DNA of 6,020 nt from IMG/VR virus record IMGVR_UViG_2778261349_000007, positions 1 through 6,020 of that record; one strand, written 5' to 3'. The first letter of the stretch is position 1. Each line of letters starts with the position of its first letter. The stretch is from a virus (taxonomy: Duplodnaviria > Heunggongvirae > Uroviricota > Caudoviricetes). Both the position numbers and the translations under genes were made by a program. Below the pieces are notes generated by a model. It was not told the DNA's origin. It ran no database searches and saw only the letters and a program-made list of their open reading frames with translations. Of the stretch, positions 1 through 6,020 are shown one piece after another.

Positions 1-1410
1 ATGAAACTGGCACCGAACGTAAAACGATTACCGAAAGACAAATACACCGATGCGATTATTTTTGCGGGTATTGATGCTCATTCATTCGCAGAGCATTACA
101 TCATTGCACAGGCCAAAAAAGCAGGCGATCCAGTCCCTCCCGTTTATCTGGGGCGTTATCAGTTAAGCGAACTGGATAACCTCCAGATTGTTGATGATGG
201 GCGATACAGGGCGACGGTGATACGCGCCGGAAATATTGAAGAGCCGCAGCTGTTAACCATCGCCACGAAACTGGCGATCGCCGGAGTCCAGGAGGCGCGG
301 CTACTTTCTGAAAATTTCGAATTGCTGGAGGAATGGAGCGACCAGCTTCCACGGCTTAGGGAGGCATGGGAACGCGGGGAAAGCCTGGTCATGAAAAAAA
401 TCCCCCAGCGAAAAACCACGCTACCGATGAGCGTTGGATCTACCGGATACGACACACAGCTTGATTACGTGGTAAAGGGGATTATTCCGGCATCGTCGCT
501 TTGCAGCATATACGGGGCGAGCGGTTCCTATAAATCATTCCTTGCCGGATCGTGGGCGTGTCACGTTTCCACGGGCCGCCAGTGGGGAGGCCGCAGGGTG
601 GCGCATGGCGCTGTTCTCTATGTGGTTGGTGAAGGCGGTATCGGCGTTCCGCGTCGTGTAAAAGCCTGGGAGGTTGTGCACGGTGAGCAGGTGAAAAATC
701 TGTATCTGGTAAACCGTCCCATCTTTCCGGCTGTCTCGCTTGATGTTGATGAACTGGTTATTGCTGCCAGTCAGGTGGAGAGGGAAACGGGTAAACCTGT
801 TCGCATGATTATTCTGGATACGCTGGCGCGTTGCTTTGGTGGGAATGATGAAAATGATTCCCGTGATATGGGGGCGTTTATCCGTGGTTGTGACGAACTG
901 AAACGGCGCACAGGGGCCACGGTGCTGGTGGTTCACCATTCCGGCAAGGATGAGACGAAAGGCGCGCGCGGTTCCAGTGCATTTCGTGCTTCGCTGGATG
1001 CTGAATACCGGATACGCAGAGAGGACGCAGGCAGCGAAGCGCTGGTTATCTCATGCACCAAAATGAAGGACGCGGAGGAACTCAAAGAAGCCGCATATGA
1101 CTTACGCGTGGTGGAGCTTTTTACCGACGCTGACGGGGAGTTAATCACGTCGCTGGTGGTGGTGGATAAGCCGCGCCCTCCCGTTGAACTGGAGCGCATC
1201 GAGGAGGCAGGGAACAAGACGGAGAATCACGCCGCGCTATGGCAGTGCATCAGAACACGAACAGCACACGGGGAGGCGTGCACTATCGCCCTTCTCCGCG
1301 ACGATATGAAAAAGCTGGGGTATGAGATGAAGCACTTCCGGCGCTGGCTGTACAAGCTGGAAAATGATGGCGTAATCGTTATTGATGGTGATGACGTGCG
1401 CCCGCTGTAA
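1..1410 (+). CDS. Replication initiator/helicase, RecA-like P-loop NTPase (RepA/AAA_25-like), 469 aa
   Basis: Long ORF with ATG at nt 1 and stop at 1408-1410. Walker A-like GASGSYKS (about nt 514-537), Walker B-like MIILDTLARCF (about nt 805-837), and VLVVHHSGKDE motif typical of RepA/DnaB-type replicative helicases of plasmids, phages and satellites. An N-terminal ~150 aa domain could be the origin-binding part. Iteron origin lies immediately downstream. Confidence 0.75.
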   Translation: MKLAPNVKRLPKDKYTDAIIFAGIDAHSFAEHYIIAQAKKAGDPVPPVYLGRYQLSELDNLQIVDDGRYRATVIRAGNIEEPQLLTIATKLAIAGVQEARLLSENFELLEEWSDQLPRLREAWERGESLVMKKIPQRKTTLPMSVGSTGYDTQLDYVVKGIIPASSLCSIYGASGSYKSFLAGSWACHVSTGRQWGGRRVAHGAVLYVVGEGGIGVPRRVKAWEVVHGEQVKNLYLVNRPIFPAVSLDVDELVIAASQVERETGKPVRMIILDTLARCFGGNDENDSRDMGAFIRGCDELKRRTGATVLVVHHSGKDETKGARGSSAFRASLDAEYRIRREDAGSEALVISCTKMKDAEELKEAAYDLRVVELFTDADGELITSLVVVDKPRPPVELERIEEAGNKTENHAALWQCIRTRTAHGEACTIALLRDDMKKLGYEMKHFRRWLYKLENDGVIVIDGDDVRPL

Positions 1411-1613
1411 AAAGTGGGGAGCAAAAGTGGGGAGCAGTGGGGAATTTAACAAAATTGAAACATAATTACCCACTTTCCCACCTGTATATACCCAAAAAAG
1501 TGGGGAGTAAAAAACATATTGAAAAACATAACGTTAGAATCACAAAAAAAAGAGGTGGGGAGACGGTGGGTAATTTCAAAAAGTGGGGAGCAAAAGTGGG
1601 GAGTGGTGGGGAA
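1411..1613. repeat. Iteron-type replication origin: about 9 direct and 2 inverted copies of AGTGGGGAG-like repeats flanking an AT-rich core
   Basis: Direct copies at 1413-1421, 1425-1433, 1435-1443, 1499-1507, 1553-1561, 1563-1571, 1582-1590, 1594-1602, 1605-1613 (AGTGGGGAG / GGTGGGGAG / GGTGGGTAA variants, 10-12 bp spacing within clusters). Inverted copies inside 1465-1480 (aattacccactttcccacc). AT-rich segment 1445-1550 between clusters. Sits directly 3-prime of the helicase gene. Confidence 0.7.
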
Positions 1614-1864
1614 TGAACAGAAAAACCAGAGATAAGACAGCGCCAAAATATAAAGCGTTAGACATGACAGAGCACGCTTTAAAGGTGGCAATCAGAACGA
1701 TAGACCGCCACGCGGGGGAAGGATACGCGAAAGAACATCCCGACCTGATAAGCGCATTCATGACCACAGCAGCGGCAAACTTTGCCACGCTGACAGAACG
1801 TGAGATTGCCGAAGCGGAACAGGTAACAACCATCAACGTTAAAACCGGAGAGGTGGAATCATGA
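1613..1864 (+). CDS. Hypothetical small protein (83 aa from ATG 1613; the ORF track starts at GTG 1583)
   Basis: ORF in frame from MNRKTRDK...; stop TGA 1862-1864 overlaps the ATG of the next gene (ATGA overlap at 1861-1864), suggesting translational coupling with ssb. Start overlaps the last iterons. No recognisable motifs. Confidence 0.5.
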   Translation: MNRKTRDKTAPKYKALDMTEHALKVAIRTIDRHAGEGYAKEHPDLISAFMTTAAANFATLTEREIAEAEQVTTINVKTGEVES

Positions 1865-2283
1865 CAGCACAGATAGCCGCTTACGGGCGGCTGGTGGACG
1901 ACCCGCAGGTAAAACAGACCAGCAAGGGCACACCGATGACGCTGGTTCGTATGGCGGTATCGCTGCCATGCAGCCAGGCACAGGACGGACAGGCGACGTT
2001 ATGGCTGTCCGTCATCGCATTTGGCAAGCAGGCCGACTTCCTGGCTAAACATCAAAAAGGCGACGTTGCCAGCGTATCCGGCACGATGCAGGTAAGCCAG
2101 TGGACAGGCCAGAACGGCGAAACGCGGCAGGGCTGGCAGGTTATCGCAGACAGCGTAATCAGTGCGAGAACGGCGCGACCGGGCGGCAAAAAAGGCCAGC
2201 AGGGGCAGGCTACTGACGCACTGAACAGGGCAAAACAACAGGCGGGTAACGATGATCCGTACGGGGATAACATACCGTTTTAA
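1861..2283 (+). CDS. ssb: Single-stranded DNA-binding protein (SSB-like OB-fold), 140 aa
   Basis: Translation aligns by eye to the E. coli SSB OB-fold (GRLVDDPQV..., WLSVIAFGKQADFLAKHQKGDVASVSGTMQVSQWTGQNGETRQ...) followed by a Gly/Gln-rich linker and an acidic C-terminal tip ...NDDPYGDNIPF resembling the canonical DDDIPF tail. Followed by a rho-independent terminator. Confidence 0.8.
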   Translation: MTAQIAAYGRLVDDPQVKQTSKGTPMTLVRMAVSLPCSQAQDGQATLWLSVIAFGKQADFLAKHQKGDVASVSGTMQVSQWTGQNGETRQGWQVIADSVISARTARPGGKKGQQGQATDALNRAKQQAGNDDPYGDNIPF

Positions 2284-2298
2284 GCAACGAGTGACAGA

Positions 2299-2321
2299 AG
2301 CCGGAGCAATCCGGCTTTTTT
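2299..2321 (+). terminator. Rho-independent terminator after ssb
   Basis: Stem agccgga (2299-2305), loop gcaa, stem tccggct (2310-2316), then a T run 2316-2321. Confidence 0.7.
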
Positions 2322-2370
2322 ACGGGTCCTCCTGGCGGGGTGGGCCTGAACACGGGGCGGAGGGGCGCGG
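2322..2370 (+). repeat. Degenerate cos-like repeat (cosQ-like acgggtcct retained, cosN core altered)
   Basis: acgggtcctcctggcggggtgggcctgaacacggggcggaggggcgcgg parallels the 4764-4812 cos copy (acgggtcctttccggcatatggacccgttacggggcggcgacctcgcgg), but the 12-nt GGGCGGCGACCT core is replaced by GGGCGGAGGGGCG. The preceding terminator hairpin is also near-identical to the one at 4741-4763. Confidence 0.5.
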
Positions 2371-2502
2371 AAAAAAGCGCATTTTTGTGGTTTTATCGTC
2401 ATCATCATCATGAGCGTAATTTATTGTTTTTAATTGTTTTGATGCAAAAAAGATGATGATTGTGGTTAATTTTCGTTCGACATCTTTGCAGGCAGATAAA
2501 AA

Positions 2503-2535
2503 AGCCCGATAAGGTCAGAGGAAACCTATCGGGCT
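2503..2535. other. Intergenic hairpin (9-bp perfect stem agcccgata / tatcgggct, 15-nt loop) flanked by an A run upstream and T runs downstream
   Basis: Stem arms 2503-2511 and 2527-2535. aaaaaa at 2497-2502 and tttt at 2535-2538 make it terminator-like on either strand. Could be a bidirectional terminator or the 3-prime end of a small RNA. Confidence 0.35.
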
Positions 2536-2616
2536 TTTGCATATGAGGTTTTTTTGGTGCACTGACACACATGATCGGGATAATCATTTCATAATTTGCA
2601 ACACAACTCAACATCA

Positions 2617-2644
2617 TTGCACAAAATGCAATCATGATTATAAT
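2617..2644 (+). promoter_or_regulatory. Candidate sigma70 promoter for the capsid operon (TTGCAC -35 at 2617-2622, 16-bp spacer, TATAAT -10 at 2639-2644)
   Basis: Near-consensus hexamers with 16-bp spacing, about 55 bp upstream of the first capsid-operon ATG (2701). Overlapped by palindromes (ATGATTATAATCAT 2634-2647 and the 32-bp palindrome 2642-2673). Sequence-only prediction. Confidence 0.45.
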
Positions 2645-2673
2645 CATAACTGGATGAACATCCAGTTATGATT
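2642..2673. promoter_or_regulatory. 32-bp perfect palindrome (15-bp arms AATCATAACTGGATG / CATCCAGTTATGATT, 2-bp spacer): operator or leader hairpin/terminator
   Basis: Left arm 2642-2656, right arm 2659-2673, exact reverse complements. Overlaps the candidate -10 and predicted +1. Followed by tttttt (2672-2677) and then the RBS AAGAGGA (2683-2689) of the first capsid-operon gene. Confidence 0.6.
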
Positions 2674-2700
2674 TTTTAAGTCAAAGAGGAATTTCTGACT

Positions 2701-2907
2701 ATGGCAGAAGAGAAAAAAGGCGGGGTGACCGTGTACATAAGCCCCGACATCGTGGAGGCGCTCAAGGAACGCCACCAGCAGAACGTAAAAGCAGGCATCG
2801 CAGCAGGACTTGATCCGCTGGCGATGGTTGAGCCGTCAACAGGCTGGCAGGTACGCGCCTATTTACGCGCGGCGCTGGGCATGAATCAGACGCATGGAGG
2901 TGAATAA
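2701..2907 (+). CDS. Hypothetical small protein (68 aa) immediately upstream of, and coupled to, the major capsid gene; possible scaffold-like or assembly factor
   Basis: RBS AAGAGGA at 2683-2689. Stop TAA 2905-2907 overlaps ATG 2907 of the capsid gene (TAATG). No recognisable motif; the function is inferred only from position. Confidence 0.55.
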   Translation: MAEEKKGGVTVYISPDIVEALKERHQQNVKAGIAAGLDPLAMVEPSTGWQVRAYLRAALGMNQTHGGE

Positions 2908-3962
2908 TGGCAGGCAAAGCAACGGCACTTAACACTAACCAGCTTTTCGCGTACCTGAATCGCGGGGATATTGCGGAATTTAAATTCAGTCCGCTGTTTA
3001 CCACGCTGTTTTTCCCGAACGTGGCGACATTCAACACCCAAAACATCATGCTGGACACCCTGGACATTGAAGAGGTTACGATGTCGGCGTTTTGTTCGCC
3101 TATGGTGGGTAGTCAGGTCCAGCGCGATAAAGGGTACGAAACCAGCACGATTAAACCTGGATACATGAAGCCGAAGCACGAAATCGATCCAACGAAAACC
3201 ATCATGCGCATGGCCGGAGAAGATCCGGCACAGCTTAACGACCCTACCTATCGCCGTATGCGCCTGATTACTGGCAATATGCGCCGCCAGGTAAACGCCA
3301 TAAAAGCGCGCGTGGAATGGCTGGCGGTAAATGCGGTAACGACCGGAAAAAACATCATTGAGGGCGAAGGCATAGAGCGCTATGAAATCGACTGGAAGAT
3401 ACCGGAAAAAAACATCATAGAGCAGGCCAAAGGCCGTAAATGGTCAGAGCAGGACAAAGAAACTCACGATCCAATCTATGATATTGAGCTTTATGCGGAT
3501 CAGGGCAATTGCCCCGCAAACGTCATGATTATGGGCGCTGAGGTATGGCGCACGTTACGCAGCTTTAAAAAATTCCGCGAACTGTACGATCTTTCCCGTG
3601 GTTCAGAATCCGCCGCAGAACTGGCCTGCAAAAACCTGGGCGAAGTAGTGAGCTTTAAAGGCTATCTGGGCGATATTGCCCTTATCGTCTATTCCGGCAA
3701 ATACGCCGACAGCGACGGCACAGAAAAATATTTCCTTGAGCCTGATTTGCTGGTCCTGGGTAACACCAACAATAAAGGGCTGGTGGCCTATGGTGCGATT
3801 ATGGATCAGGAAGCTGTAAGAACAGGCGCAACGCAAAACATGTACTACCCGAAAAACTGGATTGAGGACGGCGATCCGGCGATTGAGTACGTGCAGACGC
3901 ACAGCGCACCGCAGCCGGTTCCGGCAGATATTCGCAAATTTGTTACCGTCAAAATTGGTTAA
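2907..3962 (+). CDS. Major capsid protein, lambda gpE-like (HK97-fold), 351 aa
   Basis: Translation matches remembered lambda gpE along its length: FKFSPLFTTLFF (lambda FKFDPLFLRLFF), PGYMKPKHE (PGYVKPKHE), EDPAQLNDPTYRRMRLITGNMR (EDPQNLADPAYRRRRIIMQNMR), RGSES...LG.VVSFKGYLGDIALIVYSGKY, VLGNT..GL.AYG, YPKNW..GDPA, SAP. Length is close to gpE. Confidence 0.9.
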   Translation: MAGKATALNTNQLFAYLNRGDIAEFKFSPLFTTLFFPNVATFNTQNIMLDTLDIEEVTMSAFCSPMVGSQVQRDKGYETSTIKPGYMKPKHEIDPTKTIMRMAGEDPAQLNDPTYRRMRLITGNMRRQVNAIKARVEWLAVNAVTTGKNIIEGEGIERYEIDWKIPEKNIIEQAKGRKWSEQDKETHDPIYDIELYADQGNCPANVMIMGAEVWRTLRSFKKFRELYDLSRGSESAAELACKNLGEVVSFKGYLGDIALIVYSGKYADSDGTEKYFLEPDLLVLGNTNNKGLVAYGAIMDQEAVRTGATQNMYYPKNWIEDGDPAIEYVQTHSAPQPVPADIRKFVTVKIG

Positions 3963-3973
3963 CGGGGGATTCT

Positions 3974-4309
3974 ATGGACACTCCATACATTGAGTTATTT
4001 GCTGGCAGTCAGCAGGTATCAACGACGCTGGTACATTTTGCCGCTGATGCTGGCGTTATTCAGGAATTTACCCCGCTGATGCTGGCGGACAATGGTGAGT
4101 TTAAGCCGTGGGATGGTCAGGAATCTGGCAAGGCTGTTTATCTGACCTCGTACCCCGTGGACACGTCAAAGCAGAAATCAGCACAGTGTTACAAGACGGG
4201 GATATTTAATATCGCCGCCGTAAACTGGCCTGAGAGCGCCGACACTGACGCGAAAAAATGCGCCGCCTTTGCGGGTTCTGGCGTATCCGTTCAGCCGCTG
4301 GCGCGATAA
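3974..4309 (+). CDS. Head decoration protein, lambda gpD-like, 111 aa
   Basis: TPLMLADNGEFKPWDG, KTGIF...WPESAD..AKK.AAFAGSGVS align by eye to lambda gpD (TPLMLDTSSRKLVAWDG ... KSGTF...[21 protein letters not shown]). Size matches gpD. RBS GGGGGA upstream. Gene order E-then-D is reversed relative to lambda. Confidence 0.8.
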   Translation: MDTPYIELFAGSQQVSTTLVHFAADAGVIQEFTPLMLADNGEFKPWDGQESGKAVYLTSYPVDTSKQKSAQCYKTGIFNIAAVNWPESADTDAKKCAAFAGSGVSVQPLAR

Positions 4310-4321
4310 GCAGGGGGAACG

Positions 4322-4735
4322 ATGGCTACGAATGAAAGCATCATGGCGCTACCGCTGGCGAGTAAATTTAAAGCAGAAGCGCGGGCAATGGCTGACAGAG
4401 GTTTATCAACCTACGAGGCCGTATATCAACTCAACAGACTGGAAGAGCAGGACAAACCGCGCGCTGATGCGATTATGGCACTTGATGAATCTGGCGACTA
4501 TCAGCCGCTGCTACGTGCAATGGCAAACGTGCCTTGTATCGATGTTGGTACGGCTAAAAGCATCCTTAGCATGACCATAGAGCAGGAACGCCAGAAGGTT
4601 GCACCAGAGCTTACCGCAGCCTTTGAAAACTTTATGGACATGCACAGCCCGCAAGCCGTATCAGCAGGCATGGCATACGATGGCAGAAACCCGGGCGATG
4701 ACGGCGACATCGATCGCATACTGAAAACCATCTGA
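4322..4735 (+). CDS. Hypothetical protein (137 aa), last gene of the capsid operon; possible packaging/assembly accessory
   Basis: Good RBS (GGGGGA about 4312-4317). Ends 5 bp before a strong terminator. No motif recognised; no convincing by-eye match to lambda FI, FII or W. Confidence 0.65.
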   Translation: MATNESIMALPLASKFKAEARAMADRGLSTYEAVYQLNRLEEQDKPRADAIMALDESGDYQPLLRAMANVPCIDVGTAKSILSMTIEQERQKVAPELTAAFENFMDMHSPQAVSAGMAYDGRNPGDDGDIDRILKTI

Positions 4736-4740
4736 GACAG

Positions 4741-4763
4741 GCCGGAGAAATCCGGCTTTTTTT
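4741..4763 (+). terminator. Rho-independent terminator after the capsid operon
   Basis: Stem gccgga (4741-4746), loop gaaa, stem tccggc (4751-4756), T7 run 4757-4763. Near-identical to the terminator at 2299-2321. Confidence 0.7.
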
Positions 4764-4830
4764 ACGGGTCCTTTCCGGCATATGGACCCGTTACGGGGCG
4801 GCGACCTCGCGGTTTTTCGCTATTTATGAG
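4764..4830 (+). other. Lambda-type cos site, + orientation: cosQ-like (acgggtcctttccgg), cosN 12-nt core GGGCGGCGACCT (4796-4807), and the start of cosB
   Basis: gttacg-GGGCGGCGACCT-cgcggtttttcgctatttatga matches the remembered lambda cohesive-end region (GTTACG / GGGCGGCGACCT / CGCGGGTTTTCGCTATTTATGA), and ACGGGTCCTTTCCGG matches the lambda right-end cosQ region. Downstream (4831-4940) it diverges from lambda cosB, with no CCGTTCTTCTTC R3-like motif and a GGGTGGTGGTGGTGG run instead. It lies upstream of a Nu1-like gene, as in lambda. Confidence 0.75.
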
Positions 4831-4940
4831 CTTTTTCAGGGTGGTGGTGGTGGTTTTGTTGTTTGCTCTATCTTTATGAATAAAAAGGGAAAGATGCAAG
4901 CAATACACCAACCTGAAGCAGTAATTAAGTTGGTGTATTA

Positions 4941-5483
4941 ATGAAATCGCACCTGATGAACAAAAAAAACATGGCTAAAAGCTGCCGTGTAAGTGCGACA
5001 GCGTTCGACAAGTGGGGAGTAACTCCCGTTGAGCGTAAAGGCCGTGAGGCGTTTTATGATGTTGCCAGCGTGATAGACAATAGGGTTAACAATGCAATTA
5101 GCCAGCTTACAAACGGCAAAGGTGAGATTGATGATGATGAACTTTTACGAGTCAGGATCAGATTACTGACAGCACAGGCAGAGGCGCAGGAACTTAAAAA
5201 CGAGCGCGATCGCGGTGACGTGATTGATACAGAGTTTTGCATGTACGCGCTTTCAAAACTGGCGAGTCAGATTTCATCAATCATGGACAGCCTCCCGCTT
5301 ACTATGCAAAGGAACTTCCCACAGATTACCCCCGCCATGCTGGATAGGCTTAAAAGGGAAGTGGTTAAAGCCTGTAATGCCAGCGCAAAAGCTGCCGACA
5401 ACCTCCCGCAGATACTGGTTGCTTACCTGAATGAAACTACCGGAAACGTGCCGAAGAAGTTGCTACAGAAGAAAGGCGAGTAA
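4941..5483 (+). CDS. Terminase small subunit, lambda Nu1-like, 180 aa (start alternatively at ATG 4956)
   Basis: C-terminal two thirds align closely to remembered lambda Nu1 (LLTAQAEAQELKNERDRGDVIDTEFCMYALSKLASQISSIMDSLPLTMQRNFPQI vs LTRAQADAQELKNARDSAEVVETAFCTFVLSRIAGEIASILDGLPLSVQRRFPEL). The N-terminal DNA-binding region is more diverged (MNKKNMAKSCRVSATAFDKW... vs MEVNKKQLADIFGASIRTIQNW...). No clear SD upstream of either candidate start. Confidence 0.85.
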   Translation: MKSHLMNKKNMAKSCRVSATAFDKWGVTPVERKGREAFYDVASVIDNRVNNAISQLTNGKGEIDDDELLRVRIRLLTAQAEAQELKNERDRGDVIDTEFCMYALSKLASQISSIMDSLPLTMQRNFPQITPAMLDRLKREVVKACNASAKAADNLPQILVAYLNETTGNVPKKLLQKKGE

Positions 5484-5510
5484 CAGACGCGCAATTATTG
5501 AACAAAAATG

Positions 5511-5573
5511 AGAAAGGATCTGATAATGGCATTTTCTGGCTAAAATGCCTCGTGTCAGATCCTTTCTTTTTTT
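5511..5573 (+). terminator. Nested hairpin with T run downstream of the small-terminase gene (likely intrinsic terminator)
   Basis: Outer 13-bp perfect stem agaaaggatctga (5511-5523) / tcagatcctttct (5555-5567). Inner stem ggcatttt (5528-5535) / aaaatgcc (5542-5549) with loop ctggct. Followed by ttttttt (5567-5573). Confidence 0.6.
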
Positions 5574-5584
5574 AATGTTTTCAT

Positions 5585-5705
5585 TGTTAAACAATCTGTT
5601 ATAGAGAAGAAGAACGGATCTGACTTTTGCCAGAAAATTTTCATAAACAGATAAAATCCGCGAGGTCGCCGCCCCGTAACGGGCCATAATTCCAGGAAGG
5701 ACCCG
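5585..5705 (-). other. Second, complete lambda-like cos site in inverted orientation (cosQ-like, cosN, lambda-like cosB motifs on the minus strand)
   Basis: The minus strand reads cgggtccttcctggaattatggcccgttacg-GGGCGGCGACCT-cgcggattttatctgtTTATGAAAATTTTCtggcaaaagtcagatCCGTTCTTCTTCtct. cosN core is at 5663-5674 (forward aggtcgccgccc). TTTATGAAAATTTTC (forward 5633-5647) and CCGTTCTTCTTC (forward 5606-5617) match the remembered lambda cosB left-end sequence, including the R3-like element. It is convergent with the 4764-4830 cos, and the two flank the Nu1-like gene. Confidence 0.75.
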
Positions 5706-5738
5706 ACGACACCAGACTATCAGAACGATGGGGGCACA

Positions 5739-6020
5739 ATGACAGAAGCCGAACTACTGCGATTAATCCGTCGCGTTGCCGAAATCAGCCAGCAGGCTGA
5801 CGAACAGGCCACGCAGCCGGACAGCGTGACCGCCGAAAATTATGCGCGTGTGGTTGCTGAGGTGATGCGCCGTGACGGTATTGAGCTTAACGGCGTGGAT
5901 ATGCGCGACATACGGATCCGCGTTCTGGAAATGCTGGCCTACAATCGCCGCGTTGAACTGTATCGGGAGAAAGAAAAAATTACGTACCACTGGAAGAAGC
6001 CGGAGCGGTTACGGCGATAA
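5739..6020 (+). CDS. Hypothetical protein (93 aa)
   Basis: ORF with GGGGG SD-like run (5730-5734) 4 nt before ATG 5739; stop TAA at 6018-6020 (window end). No recognisable motif. Confidence 0.55.
   Translation: MTEAELLRLIRRVAEISQQADEQATQPDSVTAENYARVVAEVMRRDGIELNGVDMRDIRIRVLEMLAYNRRVELYREKEKITYHWKKPERLRR

Follow-up and report, generated by a model that had tools for sequence, protein, structure and literature searches.

Which kind of genetic element combines lambda-type head genes, arranged in an order foreign to lambda, with a replication module of its own? This question is raised by a stretch of viral DNA of 6,020 nucleotides (the whole of it is called the window here), for which a preliminary description had listed the order rep, ori, ssb, a 68-aa gene, E, D, a 137-aa gene, cos and Nu1. 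That order is correct, and the origin is real, with iterons at 1408-1600. We identify the window as one half, the right-hand one, of a classical Escherichia coli PICI (phage-inducible chromosomal island), a helper-dependent phage satellite, belonging to Type A of the SatelliteFinder scheme. Membership, boundaries, gene content and modular structure are demonstrated in the present analysis. As the best explanation, which we consider highly probable, the window covers the replication and packaging functions, i.e., one half, of a classical Gram-negative PICI that is of the EcCICFT073/EcCIRM12579 type and sits at the ycfD(roxA)-phoQ att site. EcCICFT073 is the prototype Gram-negative PICI and an experimental model; EcCIRM12579 (E. 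coli O55:H7 RM12579) is listed as a reference PICI by Fillol-Salom et al. 2018 (PMC6092414, Table S1), and the same island is found in O157:H7 strains. The window contains the following features.

1-1410, plus strand: replication initiator/helicase of the RepA/AAA_25 type, 469 aa (Pfam AAA_25, 8.7e-44; phrog_2850, 2e-221)
1408-1600, no strand: replication origin, two AAAAGTGGGGAG iteron groups around an AT-rich core (repeat search, at least 5 copies at 86-100% identity)
1583-1864, plus strand: conserved 93-aa protein, phrog_1231 (75% identical to the EcCICFT073 counterpart)
1861-2283, plus strand: single-strand DNA-binding protein, SSB (Pfam SSB, 7.2e-17; 84% identical to the EcCICFT073 SSB)
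2297-2370, plus strand: intrinsic terminator, then a degenerate cos-like copy with the right half of cosN mutated (aligned with cos1 and cos2)
2617-2673, plus strand: promoter-like TTGCAC-N16-TATAAT over a perfect 15-bp palindrome/hairpin, then a T-run, directly upstream of the capsid operon
2701-2907, plus strand: 68-aa protein, phrog_3255 (stop overlaps the start of the capsid gene)
2907-3962, plus strand: major capsid protein of the lambda gpE family, 351 aa (Pfam Phage_cap_E, E = 1.8e-50)
3974-4309, plus strand: head decoration protein of the gpD/SHP family, 111 aa (Pfam HDPD (lambda gpD), E = 1e-17; PDB phage 21 SHP, 6e-13)
4322-4735, plus strand: Nu3/phage-21-gp6-type scaffold homologue, 137 aa (BLASTP, hhalign, PHROG)
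4739-4837, plus strand: terminator, then cos1, the conserved helper-like part of cos (cosN core 4796-4807)
4838-4940, plus strand: cassette-specific cosB region with (GGT)n, a GTTGTTGTTT motif and an 11-bp inverted repeat at 4902-4939
4941-5483, plus strand: PICI small terminase subunit TerS, 180 aa, Nu1 family, with an N15 gp1-like DNA-binding domain (Pfam Phage_Nu1, E = 1.8e-23)
5633-5706, minus strand: cos2, a second exact cosN in inverted orientation, cosN core 5663-5674 (92% identical to the EcCICFT073 cos2 region)
5739-6020, plus strand: conserved 93-aa terminal protein, phrog_1561 (88% identical to EcCICFT073, 94% to EcCIRM12579)

In complete E. coli genomes, roxA (ycfD) and phoQ enclose an 11.5-kb island, and the window forms its right half. 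The att core GGACATATTT, which is the published core for the ycfD-phoQ site (PMC6092414), is present at both island ends in the closest genome (L001). Outside the window, the left end of this island encodes a tyrosine integrase (Arm-DNA-bind_3 and Phage_integrase matches) with an AlpA regulator downstream (Pfam Phage_AlpA, 5e-18). The island therefore has the features of a PICI, i.e., an integrase with a specific att site of a kind that prophages do not use, AlpA, rep with an iteron ori, a capsid homologue, and a small terminase with cos, and its length lies within the PICI range of about 10-15 kb. Published core components are int, a regulator, pri-rep, capsid morphogenesis and terS, and 97% of those elements carrying the full set of five were found in E. 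coli (PMC10085698). The layout of the ori agrees with the one published for PICIs, in which the rep gene is followed 3' by an AT-rich region with one set of iterons on each side (PMC6092414). A 21-bp direct repeat, CGGTGTAGTTAATGGTGTAGT, was considered as the att site and dropped in favour of the published core, which matches better and is located outside of it at each end of the island; the repeat probably represents an arm-type site of the integrase.

One could read the window as what is left of a lambdoid prophage head operon after decay or rearrangement, given that lambdoid ancestry is shared by its E, D, Nu3-like and Nu1 homologues and by the lambda-type cosN. However, the island has sharp conserved boundaries, an att core, and its own integrase, AlpA, replicon and ori. 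All ORFs are intact and under purifying selection, close homologues occur in no phage, and the same 11-kb architecture recurs at several att sites (ycfD-phoQ, tqsA, and within prophages). Instead of the lambdoid order Nu1-A-W-B-C-Nu3-D-E with tail genes, we find E-D-scaffold-cos-Nu1, placed between int/alpA and phoQ. The module genes all lie on one strand, a layout for unidirectional transcription. No genes for a large terminase, portal, protease, tail, lysis, holin or head-tail connector are present in the annotated islands of three genomes (L001, L005 and L009). A megablast search of the window against phages matched the cos flanks only, and the few matches to plasmids lie in non-mobilizable or chromosome-sized records. 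A prophage fragment is thus extremely improbable and effectively refuted by the flanking sequence, and the preliminary description was right in preferring a helper-dependent satellite to a rearranged prophage.

Its further proposal of a distinct lambda-E/D lineage does not hold, since the window is collinear with EcCIRM12579, and the EcCICFT073 module is 94-97% identical and sits at the same att site. EcCIRM12579 shares the ycfD-phoQ core and the order RepA helicase, 93 aa, SSB, 68 aa, E, D, 137 aa, cos, TerS, cos2, 93 aa. The nine proteins are all 69-99% identical (E 96%, D 99%, the 137-aa protein 93%, TerS 93%, RepA 79%). Between its SSB and 68-aa genes, EcCIRM12579 carries a PerC accessory segment that is missing from the window, and the 68-aa protein of the window is the EcCICFT073 allele, just 69% identical to that of EcCIRM12579. 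EcCICFT073, whose capsid and head-decoration genes were described in 2018 (PMC6092414), is syntenic with the window (E 96%, D 97%, the 137-aa protein 97%, the 68-aa protein 94%) and has in common with it the inverted cos2, the terminal 93-aa gene and, within cos1, the cosQ/cosN part. In contrast, it replicates with a D5-type primase and a different ori, and in the RepA helicase of the window only the N-terminal 126 aa resemble this primase (46%). It also encodes RppA (144 aa), a hijacker of the helper TerS, next to a different cosB, whereas the window encodes a full Nu1-family TerS. The element is hence not new: this kind of satellite has been catalogued since 2018, its genes are real, and the finding as originally posed amounts to the rediscovery of a well-catalogued satellite family.

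Other satellites resemble the island in part. The cf-PICIs (prototype EcCIEDL933) share the int-alpA-rep backbone family, a capsid gene, a small terminase and the lack of tail genes, but additionally encode protease, portal, head-tail connectors, HNH and large terminase and make their own small capsids (10.1101/2022.09.08.507074). None of these genes (portal, prohead protease, connector/adaptor, HNH, large terminase) was found in the window or in the whole island of the three genomes, and published phylogenies set PICI apart from cf-PICI capsid and TerS genes (PMC10085698). In SaPIs, too, a satellite TerS homologue confers packaging specificity, and Ccm of SaPIbov5 is a satellite capsid-protein homologue; Ccm leads to small capsids, an effect not seen for EcCICFT073 (PMC6092414). 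SaPIs are Gram-positive, however, with pac or cos systems and unrelated sequences. Helper-embedded PICIs (11capE; PMC10111431) match the island in size, gene order and the E-family capsid gene, and one such element (L006) was found; they sit inside helper late genes, whereas the island of the window occupies a chromosomal intergenic att site. P4-like genes (Sid/Psu/Delta, alpha primase) were seen neither among Pfam, PHROG and NCBIfam matches of the window proteins nor in the island annotation.

The assignment of gpE-like capsid, gpD-like decoration and Nu1-like small terminase proteins was confirmed by Pfam (Phage_cap_E, HDPD and Phage_Nu1), and the PHROG families agree. The capsid protein is 43% identical to lambda gpE, 45% to phage 21 gp7 and 96% to c1499, the EcCICFT073 capsid protein solved as crystal structure PDB 3BQW (match 3.7e-232); among 50,697 phage records, the closest phage coat is at most 47% identical. 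The decoration protein is 37% identical to gpD, 43% to phage 21 SHP and 97% to c1500. The 137-aa ORF aligns by BLASTP with residues 115-192 of phage 21 gp6, i.e., the C-terminal repeat and tail (36% identity, E = 3e-10), with a gp6/Nu3/N15 gp6 profile by hhalign (probability 89%) and with the C-terminus of phrog_53, a head-maturation-protease family (1.4e-8). BLASTP against lambda Nu3 and N15 gp6 gave no match, so that the relationship shows up against phage 21 gp6 and the profiles only, and a PDB search returned nothing but noise. As the ORF is homologous to the phage 21 gp6 scaffold, a scaffold-like gene is present. The reported lack of a large terminase, portal, protease or tail gene is correct, whereas the reported lack of a scaffold gene is not.

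The lambda-type cos was verified as well: at 4796-4807, the cos1 core reproduces the lambda cohesive ends exactly (GGGCGGCGACCT). The surrounding sequence (4758-4841) shows 84-96% identity to cos regions from phage 21, PhiR5_1 and related coliphages, and the cos1 stretch is common to EcCICFT073 as far as position 4837. The single cos of the preliminary description has to be corrected: the minus strand contains another exact cosN (5663-5674), and a third, degenerate cos-like copy is located at about 2321-2370. Comparison with EcCICFT073 reveals a mosaic, in which 2498-4837 and 5634-6020 are 92-95% identical, whereas 4838-5633 (cosB and terS versus cosB and rppA) is unrelated. The window cosB is conserved together with the terS cassette in 595 genomes. 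Because sister islands hold Rpp and a different cosB in the same slot, cosB and the specificity protein form an exchangeable cassette. This swap, with its fixed junction just right of cosN, represents a clean natural experiment on packaging-specificity switching in satellites.

TerS is 34% identical to Nu1, 36% to phage 21 gp1 and 45% to N15 gp1 overall. Its N-terminal domain is too diverged for phmmer, so the domains were compared by pairwise alignment. For the N-terminal 60 residues, N15 gp1 alone is similar (50% identity); over residues 81-140, identity reaches 45-50% with each of Nu1, phage 21 gp1 and N15 gp1; and the extreme C-terminus (141-168) is just 25-29% identical to any of the three. 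In Nu1, residues 100-181 bind TerL (as cited in PMC6739421). TerS shows no similarity to RppA, the protein at the same position in EcCICFT073, and lambda Nu1 and RppC were both absent from the hits of a TerS search against PDB sequences.

Redirection of packaging by the N15-like TerS and its cognate cosB is the likely mechanism of the island, its steps being drawn from homology and the published biology of the PICI family. A lambdoid helper would induce the island via AlpA, Int would excise it, and the RepA helicase with SSB would replicate it from the iteron ori into concatemers. The N15-gp1-like winged-helix domain of TerS would then bind the island-specific cosB beside the helper-type cosN, its C-terminal half presumably serving Nu1-like oligomerisation and TerL binding. 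Recruitment of the helper large terminase by TerS would lead to cutting of island DNA at cos1 and to its packaging into capsids bearing the helper portal, protease and tails. Helper-dependent induction, excision, replication and high-frequency transfer have been demonstrated by experiment only for the sister island EcCICFT073, which carries Rpp and no TerS (PMC6092414).

What, then, do the head genes contribute? The E, D, scaffold-like and 68-aa genes are a conserved, selected module with a presumably auxiliary role. dN/dS is 0.08-0.13 for the capsid protein and 0.02-0.2 for the decoration protein; at about 0.1, indicating strong purifying selection, the module must do something. Among 5,426 complete genomes of E. 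coli, 598 carry the capsid module, 592 of them with at least 80% of its length, and 768 carry the terS cassette. About one ninth of these genomes, O157:H7, O55:H7, O145 and Nissle 1917 among them, thus keep an intact lambda-type coat/decoration/scaffold-like cassette in a satellite; this cassette is strongly selected, yet the only phenotype seen in tests is 'none'. Deletion of c1499 (E) or c1500 (D) in EcCICFT073 left both interference with lambda and transfer by the resident CFT073 prophages unchanged, and with lambda as helper all virion DNA was phage-sized (PMC6092414). Extrapolated from these near-identical genes, the knock-outs show the module to be dispensable for transfer and interference with lambda-type helpers, and searches of the literature from 2021-2023 onward turned up no later paper that gives the PICI E/D genes a function.

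The preliminary description had the element supply its own capsid shell, which is unproven and partly contradicted by the null deletions and the phage-sized DNA. According to this reading, the island's E, D and Nu3-like scaffold would build a shell, possibly a smaller one, around the helper portal and protease, with motor, portal and tails borrowed. Coat, scaffold-like and decoration genes are all present, adjacent and co-oriented, purifying selection on them is at least as strong as on TerS or SSB, and the near-complete coverage of the module in its carriers and the PICI-specific coat lineage point the same way. A Pasteurella PICI with a capsid homologue makes small capsids (PMC6092414). Nevertheless, the EcCICFT073 results were obtained with E, D and 137-aa proteins 96-97% identical to those of the window, and the island encodes no portal, protease or adaptor; we consider a shell-forming satellite improbable. 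The published negatives cover one Rpp-type island, with lambda and phi80 (laboratory strains) and the resident CFT073 prophages as helpers. That the module builds the shell of transducing particles on the portal and protease of other natural helpers is similarly doubtful. If true, the island would stand between classical PICIs and cf-PICIs as a 'shell-only' capsid-forming satellite, and could gain by evading capsid-sensing host defences or by setting a different capsid size.

Slightly less unlikely is an action of the module on the helper, by co-assembly with or poisoning of its procapsids, or its use as a back-up copy in relatives that interrupt the helper E gene. Where PICIs are embedded in a helper and disrupt its capsid gene, they bring an E homologue with them (PMC10111431), the helper-embedded relative found here has a diverged E/D module, and knock-outs without a transfer phenotype fit such a role. 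The same deletions did not relieve interference with lambda, though, the island lies at a chromosomal att site and not within a prophage, and 43-47% identity to phage coats makes functional substitution uncertain. Both the strong purifying selection on E and D and the low identity of the extreme TerS C-terminus weigh against redirected packaging as a full account of the island.

No NCBIfam family matched any of the small proteins of the window. An Rfam scan gave one GcvB match below threshold (23.5 bits versus a gathering score of 42), which was taken as chance. The model of the 68-aa protein from its single sequence is weak (pLDDT 63) and shows an extended segment with two helices after it; as a guess, it might be a ribbon-helix-helix protein. 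Upstream of its gene, the putative promoter-like/hairpin element at 2617-2673 (RNA fold z = -4.3) is kept in four PICI variants with one compensatory change.

All substantial open reading frames of the window were called on the plus strand, and are listed below with Pfam matches for the capsid and packaging genes.

Substantial open reading frames of the window (ORF calls; where a Pfam match is given, PHROGs were concordant).
1-1410, plus strand, RepA/AAA_25 helicase
1583-1864, plus strand, 93-aa protein
1861-2283, plus strand, SSB
2701-2907, plus strand, 68-aa protein
2907-3962, plus strand, gpE-family major capsid protein (E; Phage_cap_E, 1.8e-50)
3974-4309, plus strand, gpD-family decoration protein (D; HDPD, 1e-17)
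4322-4735, plus strand, 137-aa protein
4941-5483, plus strand, Nu1-family small terminase (TerS; Phage_Nu1, 1.8e-23)
5739-6020, plus strand, terminal 93-aa protein

The E, D and Nu1 assignments made in the preliminary description are borne out by these profile matches and by pairwise identities, which are modest yet unambiguous: E is 43% identical to lambda gpE and 45% to phage 21 gp7, D is 37% identical to gpD and 43% to SHP, and TerS is 45% identical to N15 gp1, 36% to phage 21 gp1 and 34% to Nu1. The lambda-type cos was likewise confirmed, as the 12-nt cohesive-end sequence GGGCGGCGACCT is present as an exact copy at 4796-4807 (cos1), within an 80-bp stretch that shares 84-96% identity with cos DNA from phage 21 and coliphages related to it. 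The 137-aa ORF, previously left unassigned, is by homology a scaffold relative. BLASTP aligned it with phage 21 gp6, the Nu3 equivalent, at 36% identity over 83 residues (E = 3e-10), covering the third "Tri box" repeat and the C-terminal tail of gp6. Profile-profile comparison supported the scaffold relationship at 89% probability, and the protein also matches the C-terminal, scaffold part of a head maturation protease PHROG.

A megablast search of 5,426 complete E. coli genomes located the whole window in strain 2015C-3905 at 98.3% identity and at least 80% of it in 389 genomes. The island that contains the window in strain 2015C-3905 lies between roxA (ycfD) and phoQ, with the window as its right half. 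The left end of this island carries a tyrosine integrase followed by an AlpA regulator (Pfam 5e-18), with Icd-like and DUF4222 genes between AlpA and the window genes, and the island ends ~600 bp short of phoQ. The published ycfD-phoQ att core GGACATATTT is found at both island ends, 11.5 kb apart. No large terminase, portal, protease, adaptor, tail or lysis genes were found in the 11.5-kb island, and the flanks of the window hold no full lambdoid operon, with int and AlpA on one side and phoQ on the other. The element is thus an integrative satellite, and the earlier proposal of helper dependence was correct, the integrase-AlpA island having no packaging motor, portal or tail genes of its own.

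Comparison with known satellites identified the element as a phage-inducible chromosomal island (PICI). EcCICFT073 of E. coli CFT073, the Gram-negative PICI prototype, occupies the same ycfD-phoQ site with the same gene order as the window island, and its proteins are 94% (68-aa protein), 96% (E), 97% (D) and 97% (137-aa protein) identical to those of the window. The crystal structure of its E homologue c1499 (PDB 3BQW) matches window E at 3.7e-232. EcCIRM12579 of E. coli O55:H7, listed at ycfD-phoQ in Table S1 of PMC6092414, shares the window order of RepA helicase, SSB, 68-aa protein, E, D, 137-aa protein, small terminase and 93-aa protein, with identities of 79% for RepA, 96% for E, 99% for D, 93% for the 137-aa protein, 93% for TerS and 94% for the terminal 93-aa protein. 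The same island is carried by O157:H7 strains. Of 29 reference Gram-negative PICIs, 21 have a major capsid gene (PMC10111431), and the PICI detection model comprises five core components, i.e., integrase, regulator, primase-replicase, capsid morphogenesis and small terminase; 97% of five-component PICIs come from E. coli (PMC10085698). Taken together with its left flank, the window makes up precisely a PICI with all five of these components (Type A). Capsid-forming PICIs are defined by an additional protease, portal, head-tail connectors, HNH and large terminase (10.1101/2022.09.08.507074), all absent from the island, and this class was rejected. We conclude that the element is a classical E. 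coli PICI, already named and of wide distribution; the suggestion of a distinct lineage was wrong, as the element matches EcCIRM12579 and EcCICFT073 and its capsid and decoration genes were already covered by publications from 2018 on.

The central functional proposal, that the satellite supplies its own capsid, is partly contradicted by work on EcCICFT073. Upon induction with lambda, virion DNA was entirely phage-sized, and deletion of c1499 or of the D homologue c1500 neither relieved interference with lambda nor changed transfer by resident prophages (PMC6092414). These capsid-function experiments cover EcCICFT073 only. The simplest expectation is that window E, D and the 137-aa protein would behave as their counterparts, because they are 96-97% identical to them, and we regard it as unlikely that the E/D module builds a capsid shell of its own. 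The module is nevertheless found in 598 of the 5,426 genomes, with at least 80% of it present in 592 of these. Pairwise dN/dS was 0.08-0.13 for E and 0.02-0.2 for D at dS up to ~1, a constraint at least equal to that on TerS (~0.2) or SSB (0.16-0.26), and among 50,697 phage records no coat was more than 47% identical to window E. Prevalence, purifying selection and the lack of a close phage coat together argue that the module is not junk and retains a real function.

At the DNA level, the window and EcCICFT073 form a mosaic. Positions 2498-4837, spanning the regulatory region, the capsid module and cos1 to ~30 bp right of cosN, are 95% identical, and 5634-6020 (cos2 and the last gene) are 92% identical, whereas 4838-5633 are unrelated, holding cosB and rppA in EcCICFT073 but a different cosB and terS in the window. 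Rpp heterodimerises with helper TerS and retargets it to the island cosB (PMC6739421); the window instead carries a complete TerS where EcCICFT073 carries RppA. The N-terminal 60 residues of TerS, corresponding to the DNA-binding domain of Nu1, are 50% identical to N15 gp1, against only 27-30% for Nu1 and phage 21 gp1. Identity to each of the three proteins is 45-50% over residues 81-140 and only 25-29% over the last 28 aligned residues. Residues 100-181 of Nu1 contact the large terminase (cited in PMC6739421). A complete TerS with an N15-like N-terminus, viewed with this contact region, makes a packaging mechanism parallel to that of SaPI TerS likely: the island TerS would bind its own cosB and recruit helper TerL, which would nick the helper-type cosN. 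The cosB-terS cassette occurs in 768 genomes, with at least 80% of it in 595 of them. The island-specific cosB (4838-4940) contains a (GGT)5 run and a GTTGTTGTTT motif that phage N15 also has ~50 bp into its left end; adjoining the terS start codon is a perfect inverted repeat of 11 bp (4902-4939).

A second exact cosN lies inverted on the minus strand at 5663-5674 (flanks 5633-5706) and corresponds to cos2 of EcCICFT073, deletion of which was reported to raise, not lower, transfer. The cos2 flank is 85% identical to cos-proximal DNA of PhiR12 coliphages. A degenerate third cos-like copy was seen at 2297-2370, where a 49-bp segment just 3' of the SSB terminator aligns in register with cos1 and cos2, the right half of its cosN being mutated (GGGCGGAGGGGC). 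The SSB terminator plus a ACGGGTCC motif is repeated at 4739-4772, a unit that possibly marks a junction where modules have recombined more than once.

In the replication module, at least five AAAAGTGGGGAG iterons surround an AT-rich core at 1408-1600, in the intergenic stretch 3' of the helicase. RepA residues 1-126 (window 1-378) share 46% identity with the EcCICFT073 D5-type primase at its N-terminus, the primase being otherwise unrelated to the RepA-type helicase. The two replicase bodies thus have an N-terminal domain in common, perhaps with a role in origin or partner binding.

The stretch directly 5' of the capsid operon (2617-2673) holds a promoter-like TTGCAC-N16-TATAAT and, overlapping it, a perfect 15-bp palindrome with a T-run after it. 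Four PICI variants retain the corresponding RNA hairpin (z = -4.3), with a single C-G change that is compensatory; the hairpin may act as a terminator that insulates the operon, as an operator, or as both. The adjoining 68-aa protein occurs as two alleles with ~68% mutual identity, against 96% for the capsid gene next to it. The 68-aa protein has an N-terminus (VTVYISPDIVEALKERH) resembling a ribbon-helix-helix motif, and its structure model is weak. Comparison of window 2284-2700 with the corresponding slots of two related loci (L002, 4960-5208; L009, 6579-7202) showed a PerC-family accessory gene between SSB and the capsid operon in EcCICFT073 and EcCIRM12579, which the window lacks. It seems that cargo genes vary at this slot.

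A relative of the island located inside a prophage (locus L006 from NZ_CM143727.1, locus positions 1819-12034), between head-completion and baseplate genes, is a helper-embedded PICI. Its E/D module has diverged (85% amino-acid identity), its scaffold-like protein is shorter (115 aa), and the slot held by TerS in the window is taken by a protein of 146 aa, a size like that of Rpp. Finally, a 10,790-bp E. coli 'plasmid' record (NZ_CP148328.1), approximately of PICI size, showed an 81% match to the terminal 93-aa gene and may represent an excised, circular satellite.
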